DNA from: an uncultured Omnitrophica bacterium
Lineage (GTDB): Bacteria > Omnitrophota > Gorgyraeia > JACQQV01
DNA: 64,000 nt
Assembly (NCBI GenBank): GCA_947085655.1
Contig: CAMTXH010000014.1
Coordinates: forward strand, 9,825-73,824
Direction: 5' to 3'
The notes below the pieces were generated by a model. The model searched no databases, was not told where the DNA came from, and worked only from the letters and a program-made list of their open reading frames with translations. The position numbers and the translations under genes were made by a program. This document shows, piece after piece, positions 1 through 62,655 of the stretch; positions within the stretch are counted from its first letter, which is position 1, and every line of letters begins with the position of its first letter.

Positions 1-58
1 GGCCGAGTTGCCGAAGAGTCTAGGCAATTCGGCCATTTTTATTGGAGGAGGTTTTAAG

Positions 59-46565: not shown

Positions 46566-49500
46566 ATGATGAACCGAAACAGGAAACGACAATTTGGAAT
46601 TCGATGGGTTGGCCTTATGGTGGCTCAAGCATTCGTCTTTGGCACCTTGCTGACAGATACTGCCTGGGCCTTCCGTCGAAACCCTTACGATCATCTTCGC
46701 CAGAGGCCCCTTGCCTCTCAGGATGGGGGAATGAAGGAACTGAAGGCGAAATTGACCGGGGGGGCTCCTACCGAAAATCTTCGGGAAGTTACGTCCAGCC
46801 CCCCCGTGCTCAATTCTGAGGGGGCAAGGGATTCTTTCCGACGGGGCGTTTTGAGACTGAGTCTTCTCGGACTTTTGGCCGGCTCGGGCGCCGCAATACC
46901 TGCCATCACCCATGCGGCCTTTCCTCTTTCTCCCCCGGCACAGGTGGAAGTTCAAGCACCCGACTCTTTAAAAGCAGTACGACTTGCACGGACGAAGCAG
47001 GCATACCTGAATGCCTATTTGAACTATCAGGAGGCCTTTTCAAGACAGAATAGGTCGTTAAGGGCGGTTCAGGAGGATGCTGCCTGGAGCAGGGTGGATG
47101 AAGAGTTTTTCCGGACGCTTGAAGCGATCCGGCAGTTTGTGAAATTCGAAGTAACGGCGATGGATAAAGTGATTGCGCTTCACACCTTTATTCCGGGAAG
47201 TGTCGGGAATGTCACCTTTGACGAATTTGCGCGGCTCATCCGGCAGGATGTGAACGCTCCCGGAGAGTTCTATATGCCGCCCGATCTTTTGAATCAGGTC
47301 TCCTTTGATATCACCGCAACGACCGAACTTGATTTTCAGGACGGGGTCCAGATTGAGGGCATTTTGACTGTGACCACTGCACGGGGTCCGGATCAGCGTG
47401 TTTATCAATATGAACTTCCTGTCACAGCAACCCTTAAGGACCCGGGAAAAATCGCGTTTCACTTTAATACGCTTCAACTCCGAAACGAGGGAAAGATCAC
47501 GAGGCGGCTCATTGATACGAAAGGAACCGAAACGGAAAGAGACGATGTGGTTTTGGGGAGCGGACAGGTCTCCCGGATCGAGGAAGGGGTGATTGCCAAT
47601 GTCAGTTTCAATGCCCTTTGGAACGGGATCGGTCTCCTTCCGAGGGGAGAACCGGTTTCGTTGGAAATCCCGTTTGTGCTGGCAGAGGGGGTCCTCCGTC
47701 CGGGGAGTTTCCAGGTTCTCACCAACAATATGGAGGATGTCGGCATTGCCCCAAGTTCTTCGGAGTTGAATCGATTTCCCTTTGAATACCAAATCCGCTA
47801 CGCCGATTCACCGACGCTTGCTCCTCTTTCCAAGGCGCATGGTTTGTATGAGTTGACCTTTACCCTCACCACCGACCGTCGGAGAACCTTTGTGGTCTCC
47901 GGCCAGATGGGATCCCTCTTGGGCCGTGGGGAGACCGGAACGCTCCGCTTCCGGCTTTCGGACCGTCCGATTGTGGAGACATTTCTGGGTCAGCGGGTCG
48001 GTGAGGTTTCCGAAGTTCCGACCGGATTTTATATCGTTTCGCTTTCGATTCTCGATTTGGATACAAAGTCTCCGCTGCAACCCAACGACCGGCTTGCAGG
48101 CCCGGTGGTCCGCCCGAATCTTTTGTTTGTGGGGAGCCGTGTTCAGTCCGGGTCGAATGCAGTGGCCACGGACGGGGAATGGTTTGTGGATGGAAGCGCC
48201 ATTTATACAGAAGGGAGGGGTCCCGGCACAAAGGTCTGGGCAGAGTACGAAATCGACCTTGGTCCCAATCCGCTCGAAGATCTCGGTCTTGTGGTCTATG
48301 CCAGGAACCGGACGCCAGGCCCCACGGGCACGTTCGATCTGGAGGTCTTTGTCGACGGAGAGCCGCTCGATCTGGGTCGGGGCTCACCTCATGTGATCCG
48401 CGTTCCGATTCATCCGGACGGTCTGGTCCGGACAAGCGGGACGCCGGCATTCGATCTTCCTTCAGGGGTGCATCGGTTCCGCTTGCAATGGGTGAACGAT
48501 ACCGGTCCTACAACGACCCTTCAGATTGAAAGGGTCTTGCTGACCATACCGAGACAGGCAGGAGGCGCCCTCTCTGCTCCCGTAGCCGGTGTTTCGATTC
48601 CGGAAGCAGGGGTCCTTGCAGAAGAACCGACCCGTGCTCAAGTCCGTGAAGAACGGCTCAAACAGGAGTTGGAAAGAGCCAAAAAAGAAAGCGAACGGCG
48701 CAGAAGTATTTTGGAGCCGAGACTTCTCCTTCTGCCTGAAGCCATGCGGCATCTTCCGATGGAATTGATTCATCTTTTACGGAACGACCAAGATTTGAGA
48801 GAGGCGGAGAAAACACTCCTTGCGCGCGCAGACGAGGTCCGCCAGGCCGCTCAAGGGGTGGAGGGAGCGGAGGCAGAGGTAGCGACGATGGAATGGCTTG
48901 AAACACAAAGGAAAAAACAGACGGCTCCTTATGCAACCGCTCGGATCACCGGTCTTAATTTGGAAGGGACGGAGGATGCGGTTGCTCATTTGAAACTCGG
49001 AGACTGGATCCGTCTCGGGCCGGTGGGTCTTTCCCCCTTTGTTGAATACCGGTTCAGAGCCCCTTATCTTTCGGGGAAATCGGAAAAAGACCAACTCCGC
49101 GACGAGGCGGCTGAAGTCCAAAAAGCGCTGGATGACATTGAGGCACGGATTAAAGCGGAGCGGGATCCGGAAGTGGCGAGGCGGCTGAATCAGGAAAGAG
49201 ACTCTCTCAAAAACCAACAGCTTGCCTTGGAAGAAAACATCGCTGAACTGGAACATCTGAAACGGGTCCTCCATCTGGAGGAGAATCTCCGATACGGCCT
49301 CCAAGGGTTTTACCTTCTTTCGGACCGGCATCTTGCCGGAAGTTTCCGGCTCGCCGGGTACGGCTCTCCGGTCTGGCTCGAAGAAGTGCTCCCCGGATAC
49401 GGGCATCTTCCGGGACTGAAGGAGCGCGGAACAAAAGTGAGCGAGTCGCAGCGGCTCCGGTTTGGTCTCCCGCGGCTTTATGAAGTCTCCAACACTCTTG

Positions 49501-50735
49501 CATGGGTTCATCCGAGCGATCTTTTGGAACTCGGCGGAAGCGGGATGCTCGTAACCGACCCGGACTTCTGGACGCTTTGGGCTCTTTCCACGCAGGCCCG
49601 TCTGAATCTTGGCTCCTCTTTCCAACTTGCTGTTGAACGGGGTGACGTCGGATTCGATGTTTCATTTTATGATTACCTCAGAGAAGCGACAGGCGGGGGG
49701 ACTTATCGGGAAGGGATCCTTGCGGCCTTGAGAGAAAAGGGTCTCGGAAATTCGTTCCATACTCAGGGAGACTACACTCTCGGCCTTCTTTCCTATCTAT
49801 GGGATAAAGGGGAAGGAAGTGCCGAATTTGGGACTGATTTCGGGGGGGCGTATCATCTGCGGCTGCAGGGGATTCTTTTGGGTGTGCCGTTTAATGCTCA
49901 AACGGTTCTTGCAAGACATGCCTCACCCCGAGTTGACGTTGGTATTTCGCGGGAAATCACCTCCCGGGGAAAACTTTTCGCATCGCTCGGAATAAATCCT
50001 AACGAGATAGATCCTAATCAGAAGGTAAAGTTTAGTCTCGGCCTTCGGATCGGGACTTCAAGACCGAGACTTCCGACAAAGCGCGACGCCTTCAATGCGT
50101 CTCAGGTCGGCGCTTCCTTTGAAAGGGACCTGAAACGGCTGGAACATCTCGGAGAGAATCCGGAAGAACTGATTCAGGGCGCGATCCCTTCGGAACTCCG
50201 TTTGAGAAGGAGCGAGGGAGAAACCGAATATACCGGACCGAGCGTTCGGGATCTGTTTGACCGTGTGAAACAAAAAATCGACGTGTCAGAATCAATCAGG
50301 CAGCAACTGGATCAAATTCAGACCACCGCAAAGTCTCTGACGCCTTCGAAGACCGATTCGTCGCTCTATATCCATCCTGTCAGCCGTCTCAATCCTGAAA
50401 CCCGCGAACTGGTCGGAAAGATTCAAGACAAAATAGACCCAAGCGCTTTACGGCGTCTTGTTCCTCCGGAAGAAAGATCTGATCGATTGACCGCCGAACG
50501 GCTCGTCAAACTCCATGCACTTTTAGCCCATTACTTCAATGGCGGGGAAGGGATGAGAGATATTCATCTCCCTTCCGGATTCCAGTTAAATCAACTCGGC
50601 GCCATCGATGATGTTTCTCTTGAAACCATCCATGCAACGACCTATGAAGGCCTTATCCTCAAGGTTTTCCCAGAGATGCAACAGTTGGAATTGGAGCAGC
50701 AGAAGCTTCAGTCGATGCGGGAAAAGCAGGTCTAA
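46566..50735 (+). CDS. Large membrane-anchored or secreted protein (1,389 aa) with a β-rich N-terminal half, a coiled-coil middle and the shared C-terminal module
   Basis: ATG-ATG at 46566 lies 6 nt after the upstream stop; AAGGAAC overlaps that stop. N-terminus RKRQFGIRWVGLMVAQAFVFGTLLTDTAWAF...HLRQRPLASQDGG fits the leader shared by neighbouring genes. Coiled coil around 48640-49260. The last about 105 aa are homologous to the end of the 6,100-aa protein. Confidence 0.75.
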   Translation: MMNRNRKRQFGIRWVGLMVAQAFVFGTLLTDTAWAFRRNPYDHLRQRPLASQDGGMKELKAKLTGGAPTENLREVTSSPPVLNSEGARDSFRRGVLRLSLLGLLAGSGAAIPAITHAAFPLSPPAQVEVQAPDSLKAVRLARTKQAYLNAYLNYQEAFSRQNRSLRAVQEDAAWSRVDEEFFRTLEAIRQFVKFEVTAMDKVIALHTFIPGSVGNVTFDEFARLIRQDVNAPGEFYMPPDLLNQVSFDITATTELDFQDGVQIEGILTVTTARGPDQRVYQYELPVTATLKDPGKIAFHFNTLQLRNEGKITRRLIDTKGTETERDDVVLGSGQVSRIEEGVIANVSFNALWNGIGLLPRGEPVSLEIPFVLAEGVLRPGSFQVLTNNMEDVGIAPSSSELNRFPFEYQIRYADSPTLAPLSKAHGLYELTFTLTTDRRRTFVVSGQMGSLLGRGETGTLRFRLSDRPIVETFLGQRVGEVSEVPTGFYIVSLSILDLDTKSPLQPNDRLAGPVVRPNLLFVGSRVQSGSNAVATDGEWFVDGSAIYTEGRGPGTKVWAEYEIDLGPNPLEDLGLVVYARNRTPGPTGTFDLEVFVDGEPLDLGRGSPHVIRVPIHPDGLVRTSGTPAFDLPSGVHRFRLQWVNDTGPTTTLQIERVLLTIPRQAGGALSAPVAGVSIPEAGVLAEEPTRAQVREERLKQELERAKKESERRRSILEPRLLLLPEAMRHLPMELIHLLRNDQDLREAEKTLLARADEVRQAAQGVEGAEAEVATMEWLETQRKKQTAPYATARITGLNLEGTEDAVAHLKLGDWIRLGPVGLSPFVEYRFRAPYLSGKSEKDQLRDEAAEVQKALDDIEARIKAERDPEVARRLNQERDSLKNQQLALEENIAELEHLKRVLHLEENLRYGLQGFYLLSDRHLAGSFRLAGYGSPVWLEEVLPGYGHLPGLKERGTKVSESQRLRFGLPRLYEVSNTLAWVHPSDLLELGGSGMLVTDPDFWTLWALSTQARLNLGSSFQLAVERGDVGFDVSFYDYLREATGGGTYREGILAALREKGLGNSFHTQGDYTLGLLSYLWDKGEGSAEFGTDFGGAYHLRLQGILLGVPFNAQTVLARHASPRVDVGISREITSRGKLFASLGINPNEIDPNQKVKFSLGLRIGTSRPRLPTKRDAFNASQVGASFERDLKRLEHLGENPEELIQGAIPSELRLRRSEGETEYTGPSVRDLFDRVKQKIDVSESIRQQLDQIQTTAKSLTPSKTDSSLYIHPVSRLNPETRELVGKIQDKIDPSALRRLVPPEERSDRLTAERLVKLHALLAHYFNGGEGMRDIHLPSGFQLNQLGAIDDVSLETIHATTYEGLILKVFPEMQQLELEQQKLQSMREKQV

Positions 50736-50867
50736 AATATACCTGCCTGTAACCCTTAGAAAAATTAAATGTTATGTAAGTAAAACAAGACAAAAGTTAC
50801 TTCCATAAAGCTTGATTTTGGTGTATCCTTGTATTGTCCCCTTTTCTAAGCGTAATGGCGAGACACT

Positions 50868-50892
50868 CCCTTATGTTCTAAGGGGCTTTTTT
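50868..50892. terminator. Putative rho-independent terminator
   Basis: CCCTTA (50868-50873), loop TGTTC, TAAGGG (50879-50884), then GC and TTTTTT (50887-50892). Lies 133 nt after the stop of the 1,389-aa gene. A TATAAAAT -10-like box follows at 50905-50912. Confidence 0.35.
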
Positions 50893-50947
50893 GGCAACCA
50901 CTTCTAACATCTTTATAAAATCGTGAAATAAGGAAAAACGCCAAAAG

Positions 50948-53900
50948 ATGGACCGATTCAGGAAAAATTTCCTTTTACCCTTCAATCTTCTTGCGCTCCT
51001 GGTTACGGAGCTTTTTTTGGGATCCCTCCTCCTGATCGATTCTGCTTATGCTTCCTCCCGTCCTTCCTTTAATACGCTCCGGCCCAGGGCCTCCAAAGCG
51101 CACTCTCCTTTTTTTGATGCCCCCTTTGTTTCGACTCCGAACGATCTTAGGGCGGAAGACGGCGGAAAAAGAAAGAGCACCGAAGAAAGGTGGCGGGAAG
51201 TTTTTGTCAAAGCGCAAACACTCTATCAATTTCTTGATGAAGGCCTTTTCCAGAGGGGGGGCGGAGTAACGCGCCCCATTCCCAATTCGGGAGAGGTCTG
51301 GGAGAAAGTCGTACGGCAACTTGAGAAAATCCAAAAAACCGTCCGGCCTTACGGTGAGGAACAGATATCTCTGAGCATTCAAGAAATACTGAAGGCCCTT
51401 TACCATTACAAATATGAAAGCGGCGCGCCGGGAGGAGATATGACCAGCATTTTGATTGCGGCCCACTCCCGGGTCTCAGTTGAACTTCTACCAAGAATCA
51501 AAGCCCTTGCCGGAATCCGGAGACTTGAAGATATCGTAAGGGAGGATTTGTCAAAGACGGAGGAGATTGACCGGCGGCGGCTTCCGGAACTCCCCGATTG
51601 GGAAAAACTGGAGGAGGAAGGACAGCTTCAAGACGCCTTCATTGTTGTTTCTCTTTTGGCCGGAAAGGGAAGCCGTTTTCATGTGGGAGAAGAGAGTCCG
51701 CCGAAAGTGGTGTATCCCATCGGGAATGAACCCCTTGCTTGGTATACGCTGCAAGGAATCCGGGATCTCCGTCATGAAGGGTTTCCCACCTTTACGATTG
51801 GAATTGTTGGGGGTCATCCCACCCCGGATGGCAAATCCGACCGCGTCATGGAAAAAATCGGGACAGGGTACGTGGACCGCTATGTCCGTCAGTCGGTCCA
51901 GCGCGGTTCCGGCCACTCCGCTTTCTTTGCAACATATGCGATTCCGAAAACTTACCCCGGATACGTGATTGTTACGTCAGGAGATGTAGTGGTTCCGAAG
52001 GAGGCGCTGAAACTTTTGATTCGGGAACACCGGCGCTCGGGCGCTGCTCTTTCCATTCTCACCACCGACCTTGAGAATCCTCAAGGCAAGGGGCGAATTA
52101 TCCGAAGGGAAAACGGCATCATTGACCGGATTATGGAGCAGTCGGATATCGACCAAGTCATAGAGGAGGGAAAGACCGTTACTCTTGCAGACGGAAAGGT
52201 GCTGAGCGGCGAAGAACTCCGCGCGATTAAGGAGATCAACCTGGGTGTCTATGCTGCCAGAGCGAAGACATTTTTCGCAGCGCTCCGGGAAGTCGAAAAC
52301 GACAAACGGTTCGAAGAGTGGTATGTGACGGATGTGATTGCGGAGTTAAGGAAGCAGGATCAAAGAATCGAGGGAGTCCGTTTCTTGAAGGCATCCGATA
52401 TCCGAAAGCTTTCAGGGGCAAACGATATTTCGGAGTTCAAAAACATCGTCTCGGAATTTCTTGAGGAACTTTTGTTTCCGGATACGGTGGGGCGCATTAA
52501 TGAGATTCTGACCGATGCCTTTGGCGGCCTGGGAGAGGAGGCGCCGCTTCAGGCCCTGAACACCGTCCTGACCGCAGCCCGGGTCTATCAACATCTTCCG
52601 CCGAAGGATGGCACCAAAACATCGGACGACATCTTTCCAGAAGTGGTCTCCCGCGCGGCCAAGGTCTCAAGCGATACCATACAATTCCAGGCAGCGCTTG
52701 AACGGGAGCTTCAAGCCGCTTTTCACCATGCGCAGGATGGCGGCATCAGGGAGGGGTTCAAAAGATTGGTTGAGCTGGGGCAGACGGATATCGGAGATCT
52801 TTCGCATTGGGTCCGTAACCGGATTCTCACCCGGAAACTCCGTCATCGGAATGTGATTCTCCACGGACGGCTCACGTCCGGAGAGATTACCATCGGACCG
52901 GAAGTGGACCTGAGCGATTTTAGAGGCGGAGAGATTGCTGCGGGTACCCAGATCACCGGAAAAAGCAAAATCGGCCCCGGAACACACCTCAGCGGAACCA
53001 TCCATAATTCCGTGATTGCAGAAGGCGTCCAGATTTACCGGGGACGGGAAATCCGGGATACGGCGATTGAGGAAGGAGCGGTGGTTGAAGAGAGTAAACT
53101 CATCAATACCACTGTGGGGAGAAATGCCTACCTTGAAAACGCCCAGGTGAGCGACTACGATTTGGAAGAGAATGTCCGGGTGATTCATGCCTCCCTTTCG
53201 ATGGACGGTGAGAGTTCCTTTGGAAACGGCGTTGAAATCCGGACCGGCCCCGAGAAAGAGGGAAAATGGGAAGTCCTTGCCTATGACGGACTCACATGGA
53301 AAGAGGCAAAAGAGGTCATCACCCGGCGAGCGGACACCGCCTTCCTGACCGGCTTCCGGGAAAAGGTCGGTCGACATGTTCAGGAAGTTGCTTCCAGAGG
53401 AGGCCGCGTGGGGAGGGGAGCTGTGATTGACCGGACACCGGTTCTCAAGAATGTGAGGGTGGGGCCGTTTGCGCACATTGAAAACGCCAGGGAAATCCGG
53501 GACGCCTCTATTTTAAGCACGAAGCAATTTCCGACGCATGTCAACTCCGGCGCCATTATCCGGCATGCGATTGTCCAAGAGGGAAGTTACGTCGGGGAGC
53601 ATTCCAATGTGAGTCATGCGATTCTTTTGAAGCACTCCGGCGCTGCAGATGGCGTGAAGGTGGAAGAGTCGTGGATTGCCCCGCATTCCATCATGCGGTT
53701 CGGACATGTAGTCGCCTCTTCCATCGGGCCTTTTGTCGGAAAAAACCACCCCTCGATTTTGATTGCGGTTCAATGGCTTGAGGGGAGGGGGAATATCGGA
53801 GGGCAGCATACGGGAAGTAACCACGCCGGAACCGGCCCAACCTATGTAGCGTGGTATCCCAAATTTGCATTTTTCGGAACCAATACGGATGTTCTTTATC

Positions 53901-55915
53901 CTTTTAGGGCCGCCACCGGCCTTATTGTGGGTGCGAGTCTCACCCTTTCTCCTGAGGAAATCGGTCCGCTTCCGGACGAAGAATCAGTCCATCCTTATGA
54001 GCAGAAAATGACCATTCCCTCCCAGGAGATTGACTTTCCTTTCTCGGTGATCACAACCTCCGCCAACCCGAGATGGAATGAGATCCTCCCCGGCGGAGGC
54101 CTTTATCTTCTCCCTTACTACTTTGCGCGCCTTGAATCCAACCACCGGCATATCGTCCGACAGAAGGGAACGGAGGATGAAATCGATACCCGCGTCTTTA
54201 CCCCGGAAGTGATTGACGAAATGATTAAGGCAAGGGATCGACTCACCCGCCCGCCGGTTTCCGGGAAGCCGAAAGGAGACGATGCCCTTTACAGCGAGAG
54301 AGACTATCCGGGGCTCGGTAAAAGCATCATGACCGAACAGAGCCGGCAGAAAGCGATCAAGGCCTATGACCTGTACATTCTGTACCATATCCTCAAAGCG
54401 TTCAGGAACCGTCTCAGCCAGATTTTCCCCCATCGTCCCGAGGAGGCGCTCTTTTCGTCTCAAAACTGGCGTGTGCTTCAAGGGACCCTTCTTTTGAAGA
54501 CGGACGACGAAGCTTGGGAACATGCCCGGGGCATTTTGGAGGAGCGTTTCGGAAGAAAAATCCACCGCTGGGACAAAAAATTCGTGTTGAATCTTCTGAA
54601 ACAACTACAGATGCTCGAGAATCAATATTACAGCGGCATCCTTGACCACAAGATGAGGGAACGCGTTCGGCTGATGAAGATGTTCGACGAAGAGTTTGAC
54701 AAGATCTACATTCCGTTGAGTGAAGTGGATGCCCTTCAACTCCTTCACCGGGACTTTGAGATGGGAACTTCGGAAAATAGACGGATTCTGGATGCCGTGG
54801 CCGCCCTTCAGCGCTCTGCCGACGGAGGAGAGAAAAACAACTTCTTGGGTCTGGTTGCCCTCGGAGCAAACGCCTTTGAAGGGGGAACCCCAGACGACCA
54901 ACTCCCGAGTCTCCGGAGGATGCTTGAGCCGGTCGCAGAGTTAATTGCCGAAGGAAAAACATTCCTCCTCACACACGGAAATGGCCCGCAGGTCGGAGAG
55001 GAAGCGGTTCGGGTGGAACTTGCCAAAGAGGCGGGCGAGGCCCCTTCGATGCGGCTCCCTTACATTGTAGCCAACACCCAGGGCTCCATGGGAAGCATGA
55101 TTGCGCTCACGCTCCGGAATTTGCTCAAGGAGCGGGGTGCTGAAAAAAGGGTCGTTTACCTTTTAACCCACGTTGTGGTGGATCCGGAAGACCCTGCCTT
55201 TCAGGATCCGACCAAATTCATCGGGAAGGGGTATAACCGGGGAGATTCTCTCTATCTCGAACAGGAAAGAGGATGGACCTTTAAGGAATATCAGAACGGG
55301 ATCTGGCGCCGGGTGGTTTATTCGCCGGCTCCCCGGGAAATTTTGGAAGAAGAGATGATCAACGGCCTTTTGGATAAAGGAACGATTGTCATTGCAGGAG
55401 GCGGCGGCGGGATTCCGGTGTTTCGGAAGGGAGATGGAACGTTGGAGGTTGTTGACCATGTTGTCATTGACAAAGACCGGACGTCGGCCCTTCTGGCAAG
55501 TAACATTGGGACGCACCCATTCGTTATCTTGACAAAAGTTCCTCAGGTCTTCCTTCATTTTGGGACCGAAAGACAAACACCCCTCTCCCACTTGACATTG
55601 GATAAGGCGAGGCAGTATTTGGCGGAAGGACACTTCCCTCCCGGAAGCATGGGCCCCAAGATTGAAGCAGCGATTGATTATCTGGATAATTTTGGTTCAG
55701 AGGTCATCATCACCGACGGCCCCCATCTGCGCGAGGCCCTTGAAGGAAGGGCGGGCACCCGGATCGGCTGGCCCGTGGCCAAAGATGGGGGAGAAAAGGG
55801 AATAACACTTCAAAGTCTTCCCCTTTTCGATCTCCTGCCCCATCTTCCCAGTGCAACCCCTTCCCTGCACGAGATACAGACCCCCGCCGAAACAGCCCTC
55901 GGAAACGGGGTGTAA
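50948..55915 (+). CDS. Multidomain protein (1,655 aa): N-terminal leader, sugar-nucleotidyltransferase-like domain, left-handed β-helix hexapeptide repeats, a helical middle and a C-terminal carbamate-kinase-like domain
   Basis: ATG at 50948 is 12 nt after AAGGA. Leader LLALLVTELFLGSLLLIDSAYA...TLRPRASKA. Nucleotidyltransferase glycine motif IVVSLLAGKGSRF. Hexapeptide repeats run from about 52880. Carbamate kinase hallmarks are LVALGANAF, LLTHGNGPQVG, VIAGGGGGIPV and IDKDRTSALLA. Confidence 0.75.
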   Translation: MDRFRKNFLLPFNLLALLVTELFLGSLLLIDSAYASSRPSFNTLRPRASKAHSPFFDAPFVSTPNDLRAEDGGKRKSTEERWREVFVKAQTLYQFLDEGLFQRGGGVTRPIPNSGEVWEKVVRQLEKIQKTVRPYGEEQISLSIQEILKALYHYKYESGAPGGDMTSILIAAHSRVSVELLPRIKALAGIRRLEDIVREDLSKTEEIDRRRLPELPDWEKLEEEGQLQDAFIVVSLLAGKGSRFHVGEESPPKVVYPIGNEPLAWYTLQGIRDLRHEGFPTFTIGIVGGHPTPDGKSDRVMEKIGTGYVDRYVRQSVQRGSGHSAFFATYAIPKTYPGYVIVTSGDVVVPKEALKLLIREHRRSGAALSILTTDLENPQGKGRIIRRENGIIDRIMEQSDIDQVIEEGKTVTLADGKVLSGEELRAIKEINLGVYAARAKTFFAALREVENDKRFEEWYVTDVIAELRKQDQRIEGVRFLKASDIRKLSGANDISEFKNIVSEFLEELLFPDTVGRINEILTDAFGGLGEEAPLQALNTVLTAARVYQHLPPKDGTKTSDDIFPEVVSRAAKVSSDTIQFQAALERELQAAFHHAQDGGIREGFKRLVELGQTDIGDLSHWVRNRILTRKLRHRNVILHGRLTSGEITIGPEVDLSDFRGGEIAAGTQITGKSKIGPGTHLSGTIHNSVIAEGVQIYRGREIRDTAIEEGAVVEESKLINTTVGRNAYLENAQVSDYDLEENVRVIHASLSMDGESSFGNGVEIRTGPEKEGKWEVLAYDGLTWKEAKEVITRRADTAFLTGFREKVGRHVQEVASRGGRVGRGAVIDRTPVLKNVRVGPFAHIENAREIRDASILSTKQFPTHVNSGAIIRHAIVQEGSYVGEHSNVSHAILLKHSGAADGVKVEESWIAPHSIMRFGHVVASSIGPFVGKNHPSILIAVQWLEGRGNIGGQHTGSNHAGTGPTYVAWYPKFAFFGTNTDVLYPFRAATGLIVGASLTLSPEEIGPLPDEESVHPYEQKMTIPSQEIDFPFSVITTSANPRWNEILPGGGLYLLPYYFARLESNHRHIVRQKGTEDEIDTRVFTPEVIDEMIKARDRLTRPPVSGKPKGDDALYSERDYPGLGKSIMTEQSRQKAIKAYDLYILYHILKAFRNRLSQIFPHRPEEALFSSQNWRVLQGTLLLKTDDEAWEHARGILEERFGRKIHRWDKKFVLNLLKQLQMLENQYYSGILDHKMRERVRLMKMFDEEFDKIYIPLSEVDALQLLHRDFEMGTSENRRILDAVAALQRSADGGEKNNFLGLVALGANAFEGGTPDDQLPSLRRMLEPVAELIAEGKTFLLTHGNGPQVGEEAVRVELAKEAGEAPSMRLPYIVANTQGSMGSMIALTLRNLLKERGAEKRVVYLLTHVVVDPEDPAFQDPTKFIGKGYNRGDSLYLEQERGWTFKEYQNGIWRRVVYSPAPREILEEEMINGLLDKGTIVIAGGGGGIPVFRKGDGTLEVVDHVVIDKDRTSALLASNIGTHPFVILTKVPQVFLHFGTERQTPLSHLTLDKARQYLAEGHFPPGSMGPKIEAAIDYLDNFGSEVIITDGPHLREALEGRAGTRIGWPVAKDGGEKGITLQSLPLFDLLPHLPSATPSLHEIQTPAETALGNGV
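51630..52350 (+). other. Nucleotidyltransferase (GlmU or RmlA N-terminal-like) domain
   Basis: The LAGKGSRF motif matches the G-x-G-[ST]-R-[LMF] nucleotide-binding loop of sugar-1-phosphate nucleotidyltransferases, with an α/β pattern downstream. Confidence 0.45.
52880..53770 (+). other. Left-handed β-helix (hexapeptide-repeat) region
   Basis: Repeating [LIV]-G-x-x-x-x hexads: ITIGPEVDLSDFRGGEIAAGTQITGKSKIGPGTHLSGTIHNSVIAEGVQIYRGREIRDTAIEEGAVVEES... and VLKNVRVGPFAHIENAREIRDASIL...GAIIRHAIVQEGSYVGEHSNVSHAIL. Confidence 0.5.
54835..55770 (+). other. Carbamate kinase-like (amino-acid kinase family) domain
   Basis: Motifs VALGANAF, LLTHGNGPQVG, IAGGGGGIPV and VIDKDRTSALLA closely resemble the ArcC carbamate kinase signatures. 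Confidence 0.6.
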
Positions 55916-55921
55916 TCCCGC

Positions 55922-58900
55922 ATGATCCGGCGTCTTATCTCCGTTATCCTCATTGAAACCTTCCTATTGAGTTCCCTCGGCACAGAATTTGTACGGGCCG
56001 AGCCGGTCATCTTTTCCCAGATGTTGCTCAGGGCCCGAAGCGTTGCCAGCGACGGCTCTTCCCGCCAGGAGCTCACTGACTCCCTCCGGACTGCAGACTC
56101 AATCGAAACGCCCCAGGATGTTCCCGCGGAGACCCCCTTCGGAAGTGAAGCAGAGCTCCGGAGGAAAATTTCGGGCCAGACCTTTACGCCGATTAGAGGC
56201 GGTGCCCAGATCGAAACCGTTTATCTCAGCCGGGATCTTGCTTTGTACGTTCCCAGGTTCACCGGGGCACTTTATTTAAGCGATACGGCCCGGTCGGAAA
56301 TAGATAAAAATCCTTTTTTGAAATTTTCTTATCAGTTGGCCAATCGGCTTGGATTCCCCCTCGCCATATCCCTGAAACAAAAAATCAAGTCGGCTATCCA
56401 ACAGGTGCGGGAAGATCTCGTTGGTTCAGATCCGGTCGGCCCAGCCCTTTTACAGAGCTACCGGCTGGCGGAGGGATTGGGGCCGCTGGTCGATCCCTTT
56501 CGCGTTCTGTGGGATGTCTCCATCAAAACGAAGAAGGGGAAGGTTGTGGATTTGCCTCTTGTCATTGTGAGGGAAAGAAGTAACACCTTTCTCATCGACG
56601 ACCTGAAAAGACTGGAGAACTCCGAAGAGGCAAGACAAAAAATCGAGGAGGTCTTTCGTCTTGAGGAAACCCTTTGGGAAAAGGGGATTGTCAATCTGGA
56701 CATCCTTTTCTTAAGAAACGCCCGAACCCGAAACGGCAACGTTGTCCTGCGGGATTTGGGAAATCTGACGCAAGATGGGGCGCATGTCCTTCTCCTCTTG
56801 GAGCGGCTTCACACCGGCGGCTTCAGCCGGAGATTTCATCCCATTGAGAAAGGGGCAAGGAGGATTTCGCGATGGGTCTCGCCCGAGCTCGGGACGTATT
56901 ACAAACGCCGGGCCTACGAGGTCTATTCCGCCGAAAACTTTCTCCGTCACTGGCCCTCCCCCATTCCTTCCGCTTCCGTGTCGGACGGCGGGGACAAAGT
57001 GCCGGAAGAAGGCAAACAGATCCCCCGCTGGACTATTCCGCGGGCCGCTTTGTTAGGTTCCTTCATCCTTGTTCCCAGCGTTTATCTGTCCGTCTCTCAT
57101 TTTTTGGAAGGGTATGCTTTTTTGAGAACGCACTATACCTGGCAGACGGATGTAACAGCCGGCGCATTGATTGTCGGACTCTCTGACATGTTGGGCCAAT
57201 GGATGGCCTATCGTTCAAAGGGCGTCCCCATTCTTAAGAAACAACTCGTTCTGGCCGCGGCGCTCGGAGGTTTGTTCGGATGGACCTACGGGGTTTTTTA
57301 CCACTGGATTGAGCCGTTTTCTCTTTGGAGCCGGGTGGGACTTGCCGCTTTCATTGGAAGCGCCAAGGGGGCTGTGTATGCCCTCATGGTCGGAAAAATC
57401 AAAATGAGTTCTCTTCCCCGTTTCCGAGACCATTACCGGACGAGACGCCAGGTCGAGAAATTCGTGACAGTGATGGCGTTTGAAATACCGCTTCGATTTT
57501 TGAGACATGTCATGATTCAGGGATGGGTGGACCCTTTTTACCGCCAGATTGTGAGTTTTGCCAGTAACGCCATTCTAGCCCCCATCGGCGGATGGATTTT
57601 TAACCGCCTCCAGGTGCCCCTTCCCGGTTTGGTCCAATTTCTGGAAAATACCCTTGCGCGACTGGGGATTGATGTGAGGACGAAAAGGGCACAGGATGGG
57701 GGGCGTCAAGTCTCTTCGGCCGAAGTGGCCCGGGAAGTGGCTGAGGCGGCGCGGGAGGAAAAATGGAAAGGCGAAAGTTTTATGAAAAGCCTTTTCATGG
57801 GCGAGTTTCGTCCGGAACTCCTTTCCCCGTATCCGGTGCAGGATCCGGTCGACAAAGCGGTGGGCGATGCCACTCTTGCGGGACTCGAGAGCTTCTTGAA
57901 GGAAAACGTTGACCCGTCACAAATTGACCGCAACACCAAAATCCCCCAGGATGTCATCGATGGCCTCTTCGCCCTCGGCGCCTTCGGCATGAGAATTCCC
58001 AAGGAGTACGGGGGGCTCGGGCTTTCCCAGACCAATTATTTGCGGGCGCTTCAGCTTACGGCAAGTTACAGCCCGATCGTGTCGGCCCTTCTCTCCGTGC
58101 ACCAGAGCGTCGGGCTTCCCCAGCCGCTTAAAATCGTTTATGCAGAGGCGCAGAAAGAGGGGGATAGGGCCATCATCGAGAAGACGCGGCGCCAGATGCA
58201 GAAATACTACCCGGAAATGGCCACGCATGCCCTTTCCGCCTTTTCCATCACCGAGAAGGAAGCGGGCTCCGATCCTTCAAAGGCCTCTTTGCGCGCGGAA
58301 CGTGCGCCGAATGGAAAAGGGTGGATTCTGAACGGGAGGAAACTCTGGACGACAAACGGGCCGATCGCGCGCTACATCCTCGTCCTCGCCAGAACCCCGG
58401 ATCAGAACGGCAGACCGCAGCTCACCGCCTTTATCGTCGATACGAACTCCCCGGGACTCCAAAGAACCCGGTTGGAATTTTCAGGACTACGCGGCATCGA
58501 AAATGGGGAGTTATTGATGGACAATGTGTATGTCTCAGACGAGGATGTTTTATGGAAGGAGGGGAAAGGACTTAAAATCGCTCTTGCAACGCTCAATACC
58601 GGCCGCCTCTCCATCGCCGCGATCACCCTGGGGACCCTGAAGCGTTCTCTGAATCTTGCCCGCGGGTACGCCAGCCGGCGCATCCAGTGGGGGAAGCCGA
58701 TCGGCCAGCACGAGGCCATGGCCCAGAAAATTGCGGGGATGGCAAGGACCATCTTTGCGCTGGAGGCGGTCCTCTGGCATGCCTCCCTCCTGGTGGACCA
58801 GGTCCCCGAGGAACAACTCGATATCCGGCTTGAGTCCTCCGCGTCGAAACTGGAGACCACGGAGCTGGGATGGCGCATCATTGATGACTTGGTGCAAATC

Positions 58901-60271
58901 TTCGGCGGATTGGGATATGAAACGGCAGATTCAAAAGGGGGGCGGGGAGAGCGCCCCATCCCGGTCGAGCAGCTTTTCCGGGACTTCCGGATTACACGCA
59001 TCTTTGAGGGGACCTCCGAAATTCAGCACCTCTTCATTGCGCGGGAAGCGACCGATTTCCACTTCAAACGCGCAAAGACCCTTCTGAATCCGAAAGCCCC
59101 CCTCTCTCAAAAAGCGGCGGCTTTCCTGCGGGTGGGCCTTTTTTATCTTGCGTGGTATCCCAAACAGTGGATTCCCCGGCGGCTTTTCCTGAAGGGAGAG
59201 GAACGGTATCTTGCCCGCATGAGCCAGCGCCTGGCGCGTCATACCTTCCATCAGATCCTCCGTCATGGGCCGGGACTTGAAAGGAGGCAGTCGGTTCTCT
59301 TTCCGCTTGTCGATATCGGCGACAAACTGTATTTAAGCGCTGCCGCCCTCGCAAGAGCAGAGTCGCTTAAAGGAAAGTATCCGAATGCGGTTGCGTTGGC
59401 AGAGCGTGTCGTTAAGGAAACCCATCATGCCCTCAAGGGCCGGTCTCTTTTCCCGAGTTTAGGAATCCTCGACCGGGCAGAGGAACAGAACTATCAACTC
59501 GCCCAGCGCGTTCTCGCCGGAGAATACGCATGGCTTGAGGAAGGAATCATTCCGGATCCGGAATTTCTTCCGGATGAGGCGCTGCGTGAGGTCCTTCACT
59601 CCAACGATATCCCTCCCCGGCGCGCCCGCGCCAGGGACGAACTCCTCCGCCGGCAGGCGTCGCGGGATGGGGGAGAGAAGGACAATTTTATCCCTTATGC
59701 AGAAATCGAGGAAGCGCTCAGGTCGCTGGGCGTCCCGATTCAAAGGTCTTCGGATCCGGTCAAGGGATTCATCCGGTTTGACGCAGAAGGGACGCTTTGG
59801 GTCGACCCCTTTGTCGTGGATCATCCCGTCCCCCGCGTCTTTTTTGAAAAAGGCCTTCTCCCGGCCCTTCAGTTTGAAAAGCTTCTTTTATCCCGTTTTG
59901 GGTTTGGGAAGGAAACAGGCGCGGGCACTGAGGATCAGGAGTGGACCCTTGAAATCCTCGGGCTTCAGCCGTTCACTCAAGGAATCGTTTCGCTTTCTGA
60001 AGAAGAACGTGGGTTCATTCAAGAGTGGGTCAGTGCACGTGTTACAGAGAGTCCCCGCGAGGACTTTTTGATGCTCCGGCGGCTTTTGTCCCTTGCCGAA
60101 TGGATCGAGCAACCCGAAATCCAAGAAGGTTTTGTCCGGGATTGGCTGGAGCGGGCCCGCTCGCCGGAAAATCCGGATCGCAAGCCGGATGGCGGGAGAA
60201 GGATTTTTTTCCACGACGCCATACATCCTGCCGTCATCCAGAGACCCGTTGCGGTTGAGAGCGGCGTATAA
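55922..60271 (+). CDS. Membrane protein fused to an acyl-CoA dehydrogenase (1,449 aa): N-terminal leader, unknown domain, polytopic hydrophobic block, VLCAD/ACAD9-like ACAD core and a C-terminal helical extension
   Basis: ATG at 55922 lies 6 nt after the upstream stop. Leader ISVILIETFLLSSLGTEFVRAE. Hydrophobic block about 57040-57400. ACAD motifs: FMGEFRPELLSPYP, IPKEYGGLGLS, AFSITEKEAGSDPS, GWILNGRKLWTTNG, YETADSKGGRGE...LFRDFRITRIFEGTSEIQHLFIARE. Confidence 0.75.
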   Translation: MIRRLISVILIETFLLSSLGTEFVRAEPVIFSQMLLRARSVASDGSSRQELTDSLRTADSIETPQDVPAETPFGSEAELRRKISGQTFTPIRGGAQIETVYLSRDLALYVPRFTGALYLSDTARSEIDKNPFLKFSYQLANRLGFPLAISLKQKIKSAIQQVREDLVGSDPVGPALLQSYRLAEGLGPLVDPFRVLWDVSIKTKKGKVVDLPLVIVRERSNTFLIDDLKRLENSEEARQKIEEVFRLEETLWEKGIVNLDILFLRNARTRNGNVVLRDLGNLTQDGAHVLLLLERLHTGGFSRRFHPIEKGARRISRWVSPELGTYYKRRAYEVYSAENFLRHWPSPIPSASVSDGGDKVPEEGKQIPRWTIPRAALLGSFILVPSVYLSVSHFLEGYAFLRTHYTWQTDVTAGALIVGLSDMLGQWMAYRSKGVPILKKQLVLAAALGGLFGWTYGVFYHWIEPFSLWSRVGLAAFIGSAKGAVYALMVGKIKMSSLPRFRDHYRTRRQVEKFVTVMAFEIPLRFLRHVMIQGWVDPFYRQIVSFASNAILAPIGGWIFNRLQVPLPGLVQFLENTLARLGIDVRTKRAQDGGRQVSSAEVAREVAEAAREEKWKGESFMKSLFMGEFRPELLSPYPVQDPVDKAVGDATLAGLESFLKENVDPSQIDRNTKIPQDVIDGLFALGAFGMRIPKEYGGLGLSQTNYLRALQLTASYSPIVSALLSVHQSVGLPQPLKIVYAEAQKEGDRAIIEKTRRQMQKYYPEMATHALSAFSITEKEAGSDPSKASLRAERAPNGKGWILNGRKLWTTNGPIARYILVLARTPDQNGRPQLTAFIVDTNSPGLQRTRLEFSGLRGIENGELLMDNVYVSDEDVLWKEGKGLKIALATLNTGRLSIAAITLGTLKRSLNLARGYASRRIQWGKPIGQHEAMAQKIAGMARTIFALEAVLWHASLLVDQVPEEQLDIRLESSASKLETTELGWRIIDDLVQIFGGLGYETADSKGGRGERPIPVEQLFRDFRITRIFEGTSEIQHLFIAREATDFHFKRAKTLLNPKAPLSQKAAAFLRVGLFYLAWYPKQWIPRRLFLKGEERYLARMSQRLARHTFHQILRHGPGLERRQSVLFPLVDIGDKLYLSAAALARAESLKGKYPNAVALAERVVKETHHALKGRSLFPSLGILDRAEEQNYQLAQRVLAGEYAWLEEGIIPDPEFLPDEALREVLHSNDIPPRRARARDELLRRQASRDGGEKDNFIPYAEIEEALRSLGVPIQRSSDPVKGFIRFDAEGTLWVDPFVVDHPVPRVFFEKGLLPALQFEKLLLSRFGFGKETGAGTEDQEWTLEILGLQPFTQGIVSLSEEERGFIQEWVSARVTESPREDFLMLRRLLSLAEWIEQPEIQEGFVRDWLERARSPENPDRKPDGGRRIFFHDAIHPAVIQRPVAVESGV
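57780..59070 (+). other. Acyl-CoA dehydrogenase domain (N-terminal α, middle β, C-terminal α) of VLCAD-like type
   Basis: Conserved ACAD catalytic-region motifs, including the FAD/substrate loop SITEKEAGSD and the C-terminal IFEGTSEIQ segment where the catalytic Glu normally lies. Confidence 0.65.
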
Positions 60272-60294: not shown

Positions 60295-62655
60295 ATGACA
60301 CCGGAGAAAAAGTTCAGAAGTATTCGGAAAGAATTAATTCTCCTCGGCATTTTTCTGGCCTTTGCCGTTTTGGTTGTGGTGGTTTTTCTCTTACAGCCGC
60401 CCTTTTTGGCGCACTTTTTGCCGAAGCGGCTCGTGACAAAAGGAATGACTATCCCCGAATCGGCGGCGGTTTCACCGGCGGTCCCCGCTCCAATTCCTAC
60501 CGAGGCACCGGTTCCCCCTAAAGCAGTTCCTCCTCGCGTACAAGTCGAGGTGGTTCCGGAAAGCCTCCTCGTTGACGATTTTGATCTGGGATCGGCCCGC
60601 GGCGTTTTTAAAGAGCGTTTCAATGCCCTCGGGACCTATCAGGGAACCTTTTCAAAGCGTCCTTCCTATACGGTCCTTTCCAAGACAACAACCATCCGCC
60701 GCGGGGAGAAGGGGCGGAGTCTCATCATTGATTATTTTACGGGCGGGGGCTGGTGCGGTTATTACACCCTTTTGGCCGGAATCGACATTTCCGCCTTCAA
60801 TACTCTCTCCTTCTGGATCAAGGGAGAACAAGGCGGGGAGGTATTCGATATCGGCCTTGCGGATCAGAGAATGCAGGAACTCGAAATCGATGCCGTCTAT
60901 CTTGGGTCTGTGAACCATTTCCTTCCGCAAGGCGTCAACACTGAGTGGCAGGAGGTGAAAGTTCCGCTCGGCAAGGTTGCGGCAGACATTGACCTGACCC
61001 AGATGGGATCTTTGGTCTTTTTCTTCCGCCATGAGGGGAAGGGGCGTGTCTATGTGGAGGATATCCTGTTTAAGAACGATCCGGAAATCGAGCGGATGCT
61101 TGCGGAGAACGCCCCGCGGGCGGAAACCGACCCCCTTCATCCGAGGAGCGTTTGGGTCTGGAAGACTGACCCGGCCCAAAATCTGAAGGCGCGGAAGGAG
61201 CTCTTGGAACTCTGCGAGCGGACCGGCATCAAGATTCTCTACCTTTTTGTCGGCGATTTCTCCGAAGAGGATGACCTTGAATATGCAAAAGGGCTTGAGG
61301 GGTTCCTTCGGGAGGCGCACCAAAGAGGTCTCAAAGTCGAGGCGTTGACCGGGAACCCGATCTGGCAGATGGAGGAACAACATGAGACCGCGCTGAACTG
61401 GGTCCGTTCGTTCCTTGAGTTTAACAAAAAGCGTCCTCCGGAGGCCCGGATGGACGGCATCTCCCTTGATGTGGAACCGTATCTGGCGCAGGAGTGGAAC
61501 GAGGACCGGGAGGGGGTCAAGGCGGGCTTCCTTTCCTTATTAAGGAAGGTCCGGGCCCTGATTGAGGAGTACCCGGAGCAGGAGTTCCGGTTCGGCGTGG
61601 TTGCCCCTGTTTTCTACGCTGCGGAAGGCCCTGAATTTGAGCGGGAGATTTTCAGGAACGTGGATGTGGTGGCGTTGATGGACTACTACGACACGGCGCG
61701 GGAGATTCTGGGAAATGCCAAGTATCATCTGGATCTTGCCGAGGAAATGGGGAAAAAACTCGCCATCGGCGTCGAGACACAGGATCTGGTTGCCATCAAA
61801 CAGGGAGGGCGGCGGAACACCTTCTTCGAGGAGGGATGGGAAGGGATGGAAGAGGTTTTGAAGGAGGTGAAAAAGGAGGTGGCCTCCACCAGCGCCTTTG
61901 AAGGGTTCGCCATCCATTATGACATCAGCTACAAAAACCTTCAGAAAGGGCGGAATGTCCCGACCAAAGAAAGAAAAATACTCTATACCCTCACCGCCGC
62001 GAAGGCGCCGGTCCCCCCTGTCATTGACGGCGATCTTTCAGATTGGAAGCGGGAGGAGTACCTCTGGGTGGTAACGGAGAAGGACAATGTGGTGTACGGA
62101 CAGGGGGCCTGGCGGGGGGCAGGGGATCTTTCTTTCCAGACAATGCTTCAATGGGATGAGCAAAACCTCTACTTTGCCGCCCGAATCACAGACGACCAGC
62201 ACGTGCAGGAGAAAAAAGGAAAAGACCTCTGGGAAGGGGATCATGTGGAATTTTGGCTCGATATGGACCTTGAGGGGGATTATCTTGAAGCGGTGAATTC
62301 AGACGATGACTTCCAATTCGGCTTCAGCCCGGGTAATTTCAAATCCCTCCCCCCCGAAATCTACATCTGGACCCCTCCGCTTGATCCGGAAAACCTGAAA
62401 CTGGCGGAAGTGGCCTGTCGCAAGACAGAAGAGGGCTATGTCGTAGAGGTCCGGCTTCCTGTATCATTCCTTTTTACCACCTCCAAGCGGAACCAGACCG
62501 AAAGGATCTTCAAACTCGGCGACCGCTACGGCGTCAGCATCGATATGAGCGATACGGATGACGCCAGAGCCCCCCAGAAATCGCTCCTTTCCACTTCAAC
62601 CAACCGGATCTGGGGAGACCCGACCACCTTCGGCATTCTGGAGTTGAAAGAATGA
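60295..62655 (+). CDS. Membrane-anchored protein (786 aa) with a Pro-rich stalk, a paralogous β-sandwich (CBM-like) domain, a GH-like α/β region and a C-terminal CBM9/DOMON-like domain (tentative)
   Basis: ATG at 60295. Upstream are TATAAT (60267-60272, overlapping the preceding stop) and GGTGAG. TM helix LILLGIFLAFAVLVVVVFLL. Pro/Ala/Val-rich linker. GGGWCGYYTLL...GGEVFDIGLAD...TEWQEVKVPL domain (60580-61080). α/β region VWVWKTDP...ILYLFVGDF...DGISLDVEPY (61140-61800). C-terminal LSDWKREEYLW...WDEQNLYFAARITDD...GDHVEFWLD (62030-62640). Confidence 0.7.
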   Translation: MTPEKKFRSIRKELILLGIFLAFAVLVVVVFLLQPPFLAHFLPKRLVTKGMTIPESAAVSPAVPAPIPTEAPVPPKAVPPRVQVEVVPESLLVDDFDLGSARGVFKERFNALGTYQGTFSKRPSYTVLSKTTTIRRGEKGRSLIIDYFTGGGWCGYYTLLAGIDISAFNTLSFWIKGEQGGEVFDIGLADQRMQELEIDAVYLGSVNHFLPQGVNTEWQEVKVPLGKVAADIDLTQMGSLVFFFRHEGKGRVYVEDILFKNDPEIERMLAENAPRAETDPLHPRSVWVWKTDPAQNLKARKELLELCERTGIKILYLFVGDFSEEDDLEYAKGLEGFLREAHQRGLKVEALTGNPIWQMEEQHETALNWVRSFLEFNKKRPPEARMDGISLDVEPYLAQEWNEDREGVKAGFLSLLRKVRALIEEYPEQEFRFGVVAPVFYAAEGPEFEREIFRNVDVVALMDYYDTAREILGNAKYHLDLAEEMGKKLAIGVETQDLVAIKQGGRRNTFFEEGWEGMEEVLKEVKKEVASTSAFEGFAIHYDISYKNLQKGRNVPTKERKILYTLTAAKAPVPPVIDGDLSDWKREEYLWVVTEKDNVVYGQGAWRGAGDLSFQTMLQWDEQNLYFAARITDDQHVQEKKGKDLWEGDHVEFWLDMDLEGDYLEAVNSDDDFQFGFSPGNFKSLPPEIYIWTPPLDPENLKLAEVACRKTEEGYVVEVRLPVSFLFTTSKRNQTERIFKLGDRYGVSIDMSDTDDARAPQKSLLSTSTNRIWGDPTTFGILELKE

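Follow-up and report, generated by a model that had tools for sequence, protein, structure and literature searches.

A leader-bearing Omnitrophota protein with a GlmU-like nucleotidyltransferase, a DUF4954 β-helix, a carbamate kinase module and recurrent DGG peptides

The gene and its core modules

The present study concerns a single gene in a 64,000-nt stretch of DNA from an uncultured Omnitrophica bacterium (contig CAMTXH010000014.1, positions 9,825 to 73,824; hereafter the window, in whose coordinates all positions are given). The open reading frame (ORF) at 50948-55915 encodes a protein of 1,655 residues, which a prediction made earlier from the sequence had singled out as an unusual fusion of a leader, a sugar nucleotidyltransferase (NTase), a hexapeptide β-helix and a carbamate kinase. 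A search of hidden Markov models bears out these domain identities, and all of the motifs quoted in that original prediction were located: LAGKGSRF at aa 237-244, THGNGPQVG at 1342-1350, IAGGGGGIPV at 1482-1491, IDKD at 1507-1510, and SALLA at 1513-1517. Three elements that it did not name are the DUF4954 identity of the β-helix region, a recurring peptide containing Asp-Gly-Gly (DGG) that delimits the modules, and a conserved C-terminal tail. The features of the gene and of the region just upstream are listed below; P0125, P0126, and P0127 are database relatives of the protein.

50867-50895, forward strand: terminator-like hairpin (50867-50885) and T-run, by consensus match only
50948-55915, forward strand: complete ORF for the modular multi-enzyme protein, 1,655 aa, with an ATG start and no internal stops
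50948-51097, forward strand: leader, aa 1-50, with MDRFRK, a hydrophobic core at aa 8-30, A33-Y-A35, and an L44-R-P-R47 box
51152-51175, forward strand: delimiter 1, A-E-D-G-G-K-R-K, DGG at aa 71-73; it follows the leader, and P0125 and P0126 have it at the equivalent position
51185-51637, forward strand: conserved N-terminal domain, aa ~80-230, no Pfam match, defined by alignment with P0125, P0126, and P0127
51638-52444, forward strand: GlmU-like sugar-1-phosphate NTase, aa 231-499, from profile, alignment, and motifs
52730-52753, forward strand: delimiter 2, H-A-Q-D-G-G-I-R, DGG at aa 597-599, within the NTase-to-β-helix linker
52895-54817, forward strand: left-handed β-helix/DUF4954 module with a helical C-terminal extension, aa ~650-1290, an acyltransferase-like fold
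54815-54838, forward strand: delimiter 3, S-A-D-G-G-E-K-N, DGG at aa 1292-1294, just before the start of the kinase
54839-55777, forward strand: carbamate kinase cassette, aa ~1298-1610, from profiles, residues, a structural model, and Foldseek
55778-55801, forward strand: delimiter 4, A-K-D-G-G-E-K-G, DGG at aa 1613-1615, about six residues past the kinase fold
55802-55912, forward strand: conserved C-terminal tail, ~40 aa, ending in -G-N-G-V

The 4,968 nt of the ORF are uninterrupted by any stop codon, and exactly the same 1,655-aa protein is called in the Logan assembly of ERR3478686 and in NCBI GCA_964374045.1. Three assemblies of different read sets were compared with the window. The two just named cover the gene or part of it and each differ from the window by two mismatches and no gaps over the portion held; that of ERR4904391 aligns to the window's left end, away from the gene, with one to two mismatches and no gaps. 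A further database variant of the protein differs by one residue. The worry voiced in the original prediction, that the gene might be an assembly fusion of separate ORFs, is therefore not borne out, and we rejected an assembly chimera or frameshift fusion on the strength of the gapless matches in other assemblies and the absence of any stop; in addition, orthologues with 34-43% identity keep the same continuous layout of core, cargo, and tail. The sole hint of such an artefact is that database searches found the version bearing the carbamate kinase in one population only, and we regard the chance that separate genes were joined in this way as negligible.

Upstream of the ORF lies an AT-rich, 213-nt gap (50736-50947), the only sizeable gap in the string of genes, and an AAGGA resembling a Shine-Dalgarno sequence, likewise by consensus match only, stands ~13 nt 5′ of the ATG. 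Counts of promoter and terminator matches in the region upstream of 50948 were not above those in shuffled controls. From this layout, a transcription unit probably begins at the gap, and the enzyme genes downstream of it may form a unit of their own.

A database search with the full-length protein returned only the protein itself, which probably reflects a limit of word-based candidate selection on long queries. An exhaustive search with aa 100-1299 as the query retrieved 3,738 proteins at E values up to 0.001. Its top matches are the large multi-domain proteins P0125, P0126, P0127, and P0136, and most of the best 150 of the 3,738 are free-standing DUF4954 proteins of ~600-650 aa that align to aa ~714-1260. 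The giant proteins P0128 and P0130 carry the NTase module near their C termini. The window itself carries no marker gene, and sequence comparison places the closest relatives in the Omnitrophota. P0125, 42% identical over aa 15-1381, is held by L004 (Candidatus Omnitrophota bacterium), the only relative found by an alignment-based scan of a species-representative genome collection; a scan of that collection with the single protein as query gave no match. P0128 comes from the same metagenome-assembled genome as L004.

The domain at aa ~80-230 matched nothing in a family profile search. The NTase that follows it matches a GlmU-type profile at aa 233-499 (E 5e-36) and Mycobacterium tuberculosis GlmU (2qkx; E 6.6e-20), and was also aligned to 3d8v. 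Its motifs (LAGKGSR...PPK, SGDV, NLGVYA, EWYVTDVI, and GAND) include the uridyltransferase signature of the tuberculosis enzyme (GxG[ST]R...PK, GD, NxG, E-Y-TD, and G-N). The protein fails the GlmU equivalog model TIGR01173 (124.5 bits against a cutoff of 366.85), of which only positions 3-231 of 452, the N-terminal half, are matched. Downstream, aa 663-745 match a left-handed β-helix profile and aa 703-960 match DUF4954 (PF16314; E 1.6e-27), with 96.7 bits against a gathering cutoff of 26.2; the match of the β-helix to the GlmU hexapeptide model is weak (29.4 bits). Like GlmU, then, the protein has an N-terminal NTase with G-x-G-[ST]-R...P-K and other GlmU motifs followed by a left-handed β-helix. 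Unlike GlmU, its two halves are separated by a linker of ~150 aa that contains a DGG site, and the contiguous C-terminal acetyltransferase β-helix is absent, its place being taken ~150 aa downstream of the NTase by a DUF4954-type helix with a long helical extension.

The alignment of the DUF4954 module with free-standing ~640-aa family members spans almost their full length, and their GPFVG..H..S and G..GSNH motifs are kept. Here, however, DUF4954 is part of a larger, modular protein, and in relatives of the Omnitrophota type it is repeatedly fused with enzymes of the hexosamine pathway. P0125 has a NAGPA domain, P0136 a phosphoglucomutase and a PIG-L deacetylase, and in a second clade DUF4954 is joined with GlmS-type GATase and SIS domains. 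Searches for other clues to the family gave little: the DUF4954 profile matched only generic β-helix regions among PDB sequences, a literature search on DUF4954 found two incidental mentions, and the neighbourhood of one free-standing DUF4954 gene gave no functional hint. The recurrent fusions suggest that the core probably takes part in hexosamine or nucleotide-sugar metabolism, and the core would then act on hexosamine phosphates or nucleotide sugars. The link to glycans or amino sugars proposed in the original prediction gains support from these same partners and from a gene of the Glucosamine_iso family downstream of the window. The repeated fusions tie an uncharacterised protein family to hexosamine metabolism.

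The carbamate kinase module as exchangeable cargo

The kinase module matches TIGR00746 over aa 1302-1607 (E 1.8e-82) with 276.8 bits, below the equivalog cutoff of 358.25, and passes the subfamily model NF009007 marginally (267.9 bits against a cutoff of 266). Taken whole, the protein thus resembles by sequence a fusion of a GlmU-type enzyme with a carbamate kinase and falls below the equivalog cutoffs of both. Sequence identity of the module is 50-53% with free-standing bacterial kinases and 41% with the Pyrococcus enzyme. The best 120 homologues are all unfused proteins of 307-330 aa, in keeping with the earlier description of the fusion as unusual, and a literature search on carbamate kinase fusions found nothing relevant. 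An AlphaFold2 model has a predicted local distance difference test (pLDDT) score of about 90 over aa 1299-1609 and shows the full-length amino-acid-kinase fold, including the auxiliary subdomain; Foldseek gave target-normalised template modelling (TM) scores of 0.88-0.93 to 1e19, 2e9y, 3kzf, and 1b7b.

Residues were mapped by pairwise alignment and are given with Giardia numbering in brackets, with residue roles taken from work on the Giardia and Enterococcus carbamate kinases (PMC3659122). The catalytic residues are kept: N1345-G1346 (the Asn-Gly oxyanion hole), K1423 (Lys131), R1454 (Arg163), K1509 and D1510 (Lys216 and Asp217), the Thr of ILTKV (Thr236), and K1571 (Lys278); the GGGGIP loop is kept as well. 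Hence, the catalytic Lys and Asp residues, whose conservation the original prediction had proposed to check, are in place (K1423, K1509, D1510, and K1571). Its description of the kinase motifs as unmistakable is nevertheless overstated, since two residues termed invariant in carbamate kinases (PMC3659122) are substituted. Ala1307 takes the place of Gly13 of the GGN phosphate loop, which reads GAN here, and Tyr1448 takes the place of Asp157 of the auxiliary domain. Among the 120 homologues, Gly occupies the first position in all 120 and Asp the second in 114, and the solved Pyrococcus and Aeropyrum kinases have Gly and Asp at these positions. Compared with solved carbamate kinases (ArcC; 1e19, 1b7b, and 3kzf), the module therefore shares the full-length fold, the auxiliary subdomain, and the catalytic Lys, Asp, and Asn-Gly residues, but it differs in its C-terminal place within a leader-bearing protein of 1,655 aa, its flanking DGG peptides, its Gly-to-Ala and Asp-to-Tyr changes, and its score below the TIGR00746 cutoff.

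These departures raise the possibility that the module is a pseudo-enzyme, serving in binding or structure, or an enzyme with a changed substrate that phosphorylates some other carboxylate. The lost Gly is one whose backbone NH contacts the β/γ phosphate (PMC3659122), the replaced Asp is the second of the two invariant residues, changes stand at 18 of the 97 columns with conservation of 95% or more in the nearest clade, the TIGR00746 score is low, and the fusion occurs in a single population. On the other side, the contact of the Gly is made through the backbone, so that Ala may be tolerated; Lys1423, Lys1509, Asp1510, Lys1571, Asn1345-Gly1346, Arg1454, and the GGGGIP loop are all retained; and the confident model superposes well on known carbamate kinases. 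Moreover, 21-22 of the same 97 columns are changed in the Pyrococcus and Aeropyrum kinases of known structure. Gross degeneration was rejected as an explanation because these two archaeal enzymes deviate as much from the clade consensus. We consider a pseudo-enzyme or a changed substrate unlikely; to judge from its residues, the kinase is probably active but atypical.

A three-way alignment with P0125 and P0126 shows that the leader, N-terminal domain, NTase, β-helix/DUF4954 module, and C-terminal tail are conserved and that the segment between core and tail is not. This segment holds the carbamate kinase here, a class I/II aminotransferase in P0126, and an unannotated region in P0125. In a relative from L006, ARMT1-like and CofD domains accompany the same core, as do the NAGPA domain in P0125 and the phosphoglucomutase and PIG-L domains in P0136. 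The presence of unrelated enzymes at the kinase position in orthologues suggests that the kinase is lineage-specific cargo and not part of a conserved machine; by this comparison it appears to be exchangeable, and no conserved partner of the NTase/β-helix core. The tail, for its part, ends in -ESGV, -TSGV, or -LTGV in relatives. A GlyGly-CTERM/rhombosortase signal was considered for it and rejected, the tail having no transmembrane helix.

The exchangeability of the kinase bears directly on the activity first proposed for the protein, in which an intact anchored polypeptide couples the kinase with the NTase and β-helix, so that carbamoyl or nucleotidyl groups are added in situ to a glycan or to the giant proteins encoded nearby. 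The fusion partners of the relatives, which suggest hexosamine and nucleotide-sugar chemistry, and the genes with carbohydrate-binding modules (CBMs) that come next in the gene string would fit such a scheme. However, profile scans found no carbamoyltransferase domain in the protein or its neighbours, the unrelated enzymes in the kinase slot of orthologues speak against any conserved coupling of kinase and core, and a shared leader and adjacency are all that connect the enzyme to the giant proteins. In-situ carbamoylation or nucleotidylation thus finds no direct support in these data, and we judge it improbable.

DGG peptides, leader and the fate of the protein

The four delimiter peptides of the protein belong to a wider pattern. 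In the four leader-bearing ORFs of the window (28257, 46566, 50948, and 55922), every DGG (13/13) is followed by x-[KRQ], and composition-preserving shuffles predict ~0.55 such sites in total, by which we rejected chance origin from composition. The logo compiled from 40 sites, taken from these ORFs and from seven relatives, reads [ST]-A-[RKSQ]-D-G-G-x-[RK]-x-[IL]. In five domain-mapped proteins all 22 sites lie outside domain envelopes (22/22; P about 8e-8), several of them 3-12 residues or less from where a domain ends or starts. Behind the leader there is always one site, and in enzyme-type proteins another precedes the conserved tail. Sites are kept at orthologous positions although the proteins are only 34-37% identical, and DGA, DGS, and DGD variants occur at equivalent positions. 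The codons used differ from site to site (GAC or GAT; GGC, GGA, or GGG), which argues for selection on the peptide and not on the DNA, and on this ground a DNA-level recombination signal or an RNA signal was rejected. Delimiters 3 and 4 bracket the kinase at the termini expected of a free-standing kinase. In the structural models, both of these delimiters lie in segments of low confidence: pLDDT falls below 50 between the last helix of the core and the first strand of the kinase, around delimiter 3. Next to delimiter 2, the first ~110 residues of model m4b4193e51d97 (aa 600-710) are likewise below 50. Our preferred interpretation, drawn from this pattern, is that the DGG peptides are processing sites between modules.

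A sister clade with a different leader has an analogous peptide, [AS]-G-L-E-E, after the leader and at intervals thereafter. Its members (P0131, P0170, P0212, P0224, and P0179) are proteins of 900-4,000 aa, retrieved by the search with aa 100-1299, with the leader ...PAWALRPE..., recurrent [AS]-G-L-E-E, and the DUF4954 modules joined to GlmS-type GATase and SIS domains mentioned above. Separately, in a small leader-bearing ORF of the window (8-829), V-D-G-G-G occurs twice (aa 200 and 226), alongside repeated segments rich in KPV/KPI.

The original prediction held that the protein sits behind the same leader as the giant proteins. Indeed, one leader pattern is common to ORFs 28257 (6,100 aa), 46566, 50948, and 55922 and to relatives from other metagenomes; the 7,091-aa ORF of the window has merely a looser version. 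The pattern consists of a start rich in K and R, where R-P-L is frequent, a hydrophobic core containing a conserved E or Q (VETFLW-like), D-x-A-x-A, and H-L-R-P-[KR], followed by the first site, DGG-x-K-x-L-x3-L-x-G. A profile of eight leaders had no matches at database scale. In the 1,655-aa protein, the core (aa 8-30, with Glu21) is the sole hydrophobic segment and is succeeded by D31-S-A33-Y-A35, which contains a signal-peptidase-like AxA, and then by L44-R-P-R47. In its sequence, the leader has the Sec-type arrangement, conserved in the family, of a positive n-region, a hydrophobic h-region, and a small-x-small c-region. The same leader precedes a PG_binding_1 domain in the 6,100-aa neighbour and the NAGPA domain of P0125, and a hand count across eight family leaders gives 26 K/R N-terminal and 9 C-terminal of the hydrophobic core. 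From the charge bias, the AxA, and the domains found behind the same leader, we infer export, with the N terminus inside and the body outside.

Collectively, these data lead us to the reading that we hold on balance to be probable: 50948-55915 is a genuine single gene for a protein made of leader, core, cargo slot, and tail, with modules separated by DGG peptides, that is exported and processed at those peptides. In the mechanism that this implies, the leader would carry the body of the protein outward while the N terminus stays inside, and cutting at the DGG peptides would free the ~320-aa kinase and the other modules. The NTase/β-helix core would work on hexosamine phosphates or nucleotide sugars, and the kinase would interconvert carbamoyl phosphate and ADP with ATP and NH3/CO2 for the chemistry of the core. 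More speculatively, its role could be the regeneration of ATP at the expense of carbamoyl phosphate, or else the provision of ammonia or of carbamoyl phosphate itself.

Several observations weigh against this reading. No cleavage product and no proteomic sign of cutting at DGG was seen. No recognisable peptidase family was found in the ORFs of the window, giants included, or in the relatives scanned; for the giants, a Pfam scan returned nothing in the 7,091-aa ORF and PG_binding_1 alone in the 6,100-aa ORF, so that neither offers a protease candidate. The position orthologous to delimiter 2 reads DGA in P0125 and has no delimiter in P0126. Low pLDDT at the delimiters is expected in any case, because their flanks lack alignment depth. 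Export would place enzymes that depend on ATP, UTP, acyl-CoA, and FAD where those cofactors are not known to occur. To these must be added the points given above for the kinase, namely Ala1307, Tyr1448, the score below the TIGR00746 cutoff, and the restriction of the kinase-bearing version to one population.

Some of these same observations would be explained if the protein remained an intact multi-enzyme polypeptide, tethered to the inner membrane by its N-terminal hydrophobic segment and with its body possibly on the cytoplasmic side, DGG acting as a conserved flexible linker or as a docking motif for some partner. The enzyme modules all need cytoplasmic cofactors, as is established biochemistry for GlmU-type NTases, carbamate kinase, and acyl-CoA dehydrogenases; the scanned ORFs of the window yielded no protease; and the hydrophobic core, at ~23 residues, is unusually long for a cleaved signal peptide. 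Among Omnitrophota long proteins, moreover, 46% are assigned a membrane-anchored topology with cytoplasmic domains (bioRxiv 10.64898/2026.06.07.730766). However, the 26 to 9 distribution of K/R across the eight leaders and the conserved AxA fit export with the N terminus in and the C terminus out, PG_binding_1 and NAGPA domains stand behind the same leader, and a mere linker would not require a conserved eight-residue motif right after the leader and exactly at the native termini of domains. A tethered, uncut protein is therefore possible, but we think it rather unlikely.

The reading of an exported protein processed at DGG can be carried further. Omnitrophota are abundant, ultra-small, and probably predatory or episymbiotic bacteria, and DGG, together with the [AS]-G-L-E-E of the sister clade, might be the cleavage signal of their giant and multi-enzyme proteins at large. 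These would then be exported polyproteins, cut into free enzymes that act outside the cytoplasm, possibly in or on prey or host, with the -[ST]GV tail as a handle for processing or sorting. We offer this extension only tentatively and think it doubtful. The gene described here and its relatives provide a testable pattern of leader, delimiter, cargo slot, and tail. Should the delimiters prove to be sites of processing, functional units of giant proteins would become separable by computation and a bacterial polyprotein strategy would be established. In addition, a carbamate kinase behind an export-type leader sharpens the question of how cofactor-dependent enzymes could work there.

Related systems and neighbouring genes

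Multi-enzyme long proteins of Omnitrophota have already been described, including the same puzzle of cofactor-dependent, cytoplasmic-type enzymes behind export signals, noted there for giants (bioRxiv 10.64898/2026.06.07.730766). Like them, the protein studied here combines unrelated enzymes, with sugar metabolism prominent, in one polypeptide with a leader or transmembrane segment beside giant ORFs: an NTase, a β-helix/DUF4954 module, and a carbamate kinase lie behind a single N-terminal hydrophobic leader. It differs in size, at 1,655 aa against the at least 10,000 aa of the proteins catalogued. Thus, with its closest relatives in the same phylum, it appears to be a small member of the class that fits in all but size, with a delimiter pattern previously unreported. 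Cleavage of Omnitrophota giants, with which processing at DGG would agree, was suspected by West-Roberts and colleagues, who reported C39 and S8 peptidase domains and stated that the cleavage points are unknown (10.1101/2023.11.21.568195), and whether the long proteins are cut is raised as a question in both preprints (10.64898/2026.06.07.730766 and 10.1101/2023.11.21.568195). In a term search, carbamate kinase is unmentioned in either, and the first contains no mention of a motif or of cleavage; a literature search on Omnitrophota polyproteins found nothing relevant. From this we take it that neither preprint describes the kinase as cargo, an architecture with a cargo slot, either delimiter (DGG or AGLEE), or the -GV tail.

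Processed multi-domain precursors or leaders include viral polyproteins, MARTX multi-effector toxins, and double-glycine (C39) leaders. The present protein resembles such precursors in having a recurrent peptide at domain borders and modules sized like free-standing enzymes. With double-glycine leaders it shares Gly-Gly, in whose place Gly-Ala, Gly-Ser, or Gly-Asp can stand at corresponding sites; however, the hydrophobic positions of classical leaders are missing from the delimiter logo, and no protease was found in the scanned ORFs. Polymorphic toxins, too, have demarcation motifs, VENN in CdiA and DPxGL in Rhs, that, like DGG, are short, conserved, and placed where a constant region gives way to exchangeable C-terminal cassettes. 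In contrast to those systems, the cargo here consists of metabolic enzymes, there are several delimiters per protein and no immunity genes, and conservation is at the level of the peptide.

The other genes of the string are as follows.

6750-28025: 7,091-aa ORF, no Pfam match, no DGG.[KRQ] site, several hydrophobic-helix clusters
28257-46559, forward strand: 6,100-aa protein, same leader, four DGG.[KR] sites, PG_binding_1 at aa 1054-1127
46566-50735, forward strand: 1,389-aa syntenic partner on the upstream side, same leader, a single DGG (aa 53), no Pfam domain
55922-60271, forward strand: downstream syntenic partner, 1,449 aa, beginning 6 nt past the stop of the 50948 ORF, same type of leader
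60295-62655 and 62652-63797: CBM9/CBM30/CBM11-like carbohydrate-binding proteins with N-terminal hydrophobic anchors

L005 repeats the order of a 46566-like gene, the core protein, a 55922-like gene, and a CBM protein, and L004, L006, and L091 repeat parts of it. The 6,100-aa and 1,389-aa proteins have a C-terminal domain in common (...LVKLYALLAHHFNGG...I.LP.GF...; window 46059-46559 and 50235-50735), which also ends P0128, P0129, and P0130 and the upstream ORFs of L004, L005, and L006. Our impression is that the region of the 1,389-aa protein before this domain is rich in β-strands and resembles an outer-membrane barrel. The 1,449-aa protein has DGG sites at aa 355, 592, 1249, and 1423, a complete acyl-CoA dehydrogenase at aa 655-1042, and the tail -ESGV. 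It also has four to six hydrophobic helices at aa ~377-560, a count with which its dehydrogenase could lie on either side of the membrane. Its counterpart in L005 is 1,268 aa long, ends in -TSGV, and has no Pfam domain. The two CBM genes overlap by 4 nt, and the first is syntenic in L005. Just past the right end of the window, on the same contig (L002, 12063-14149), lie genes for a CBM30 protein, a Glucosamine_iso (NagB/Pgl family) protein, and a protein with NTP_transf_4 and hexapeptide domains, which, going by their family assignments, fit the hexosamine theme.

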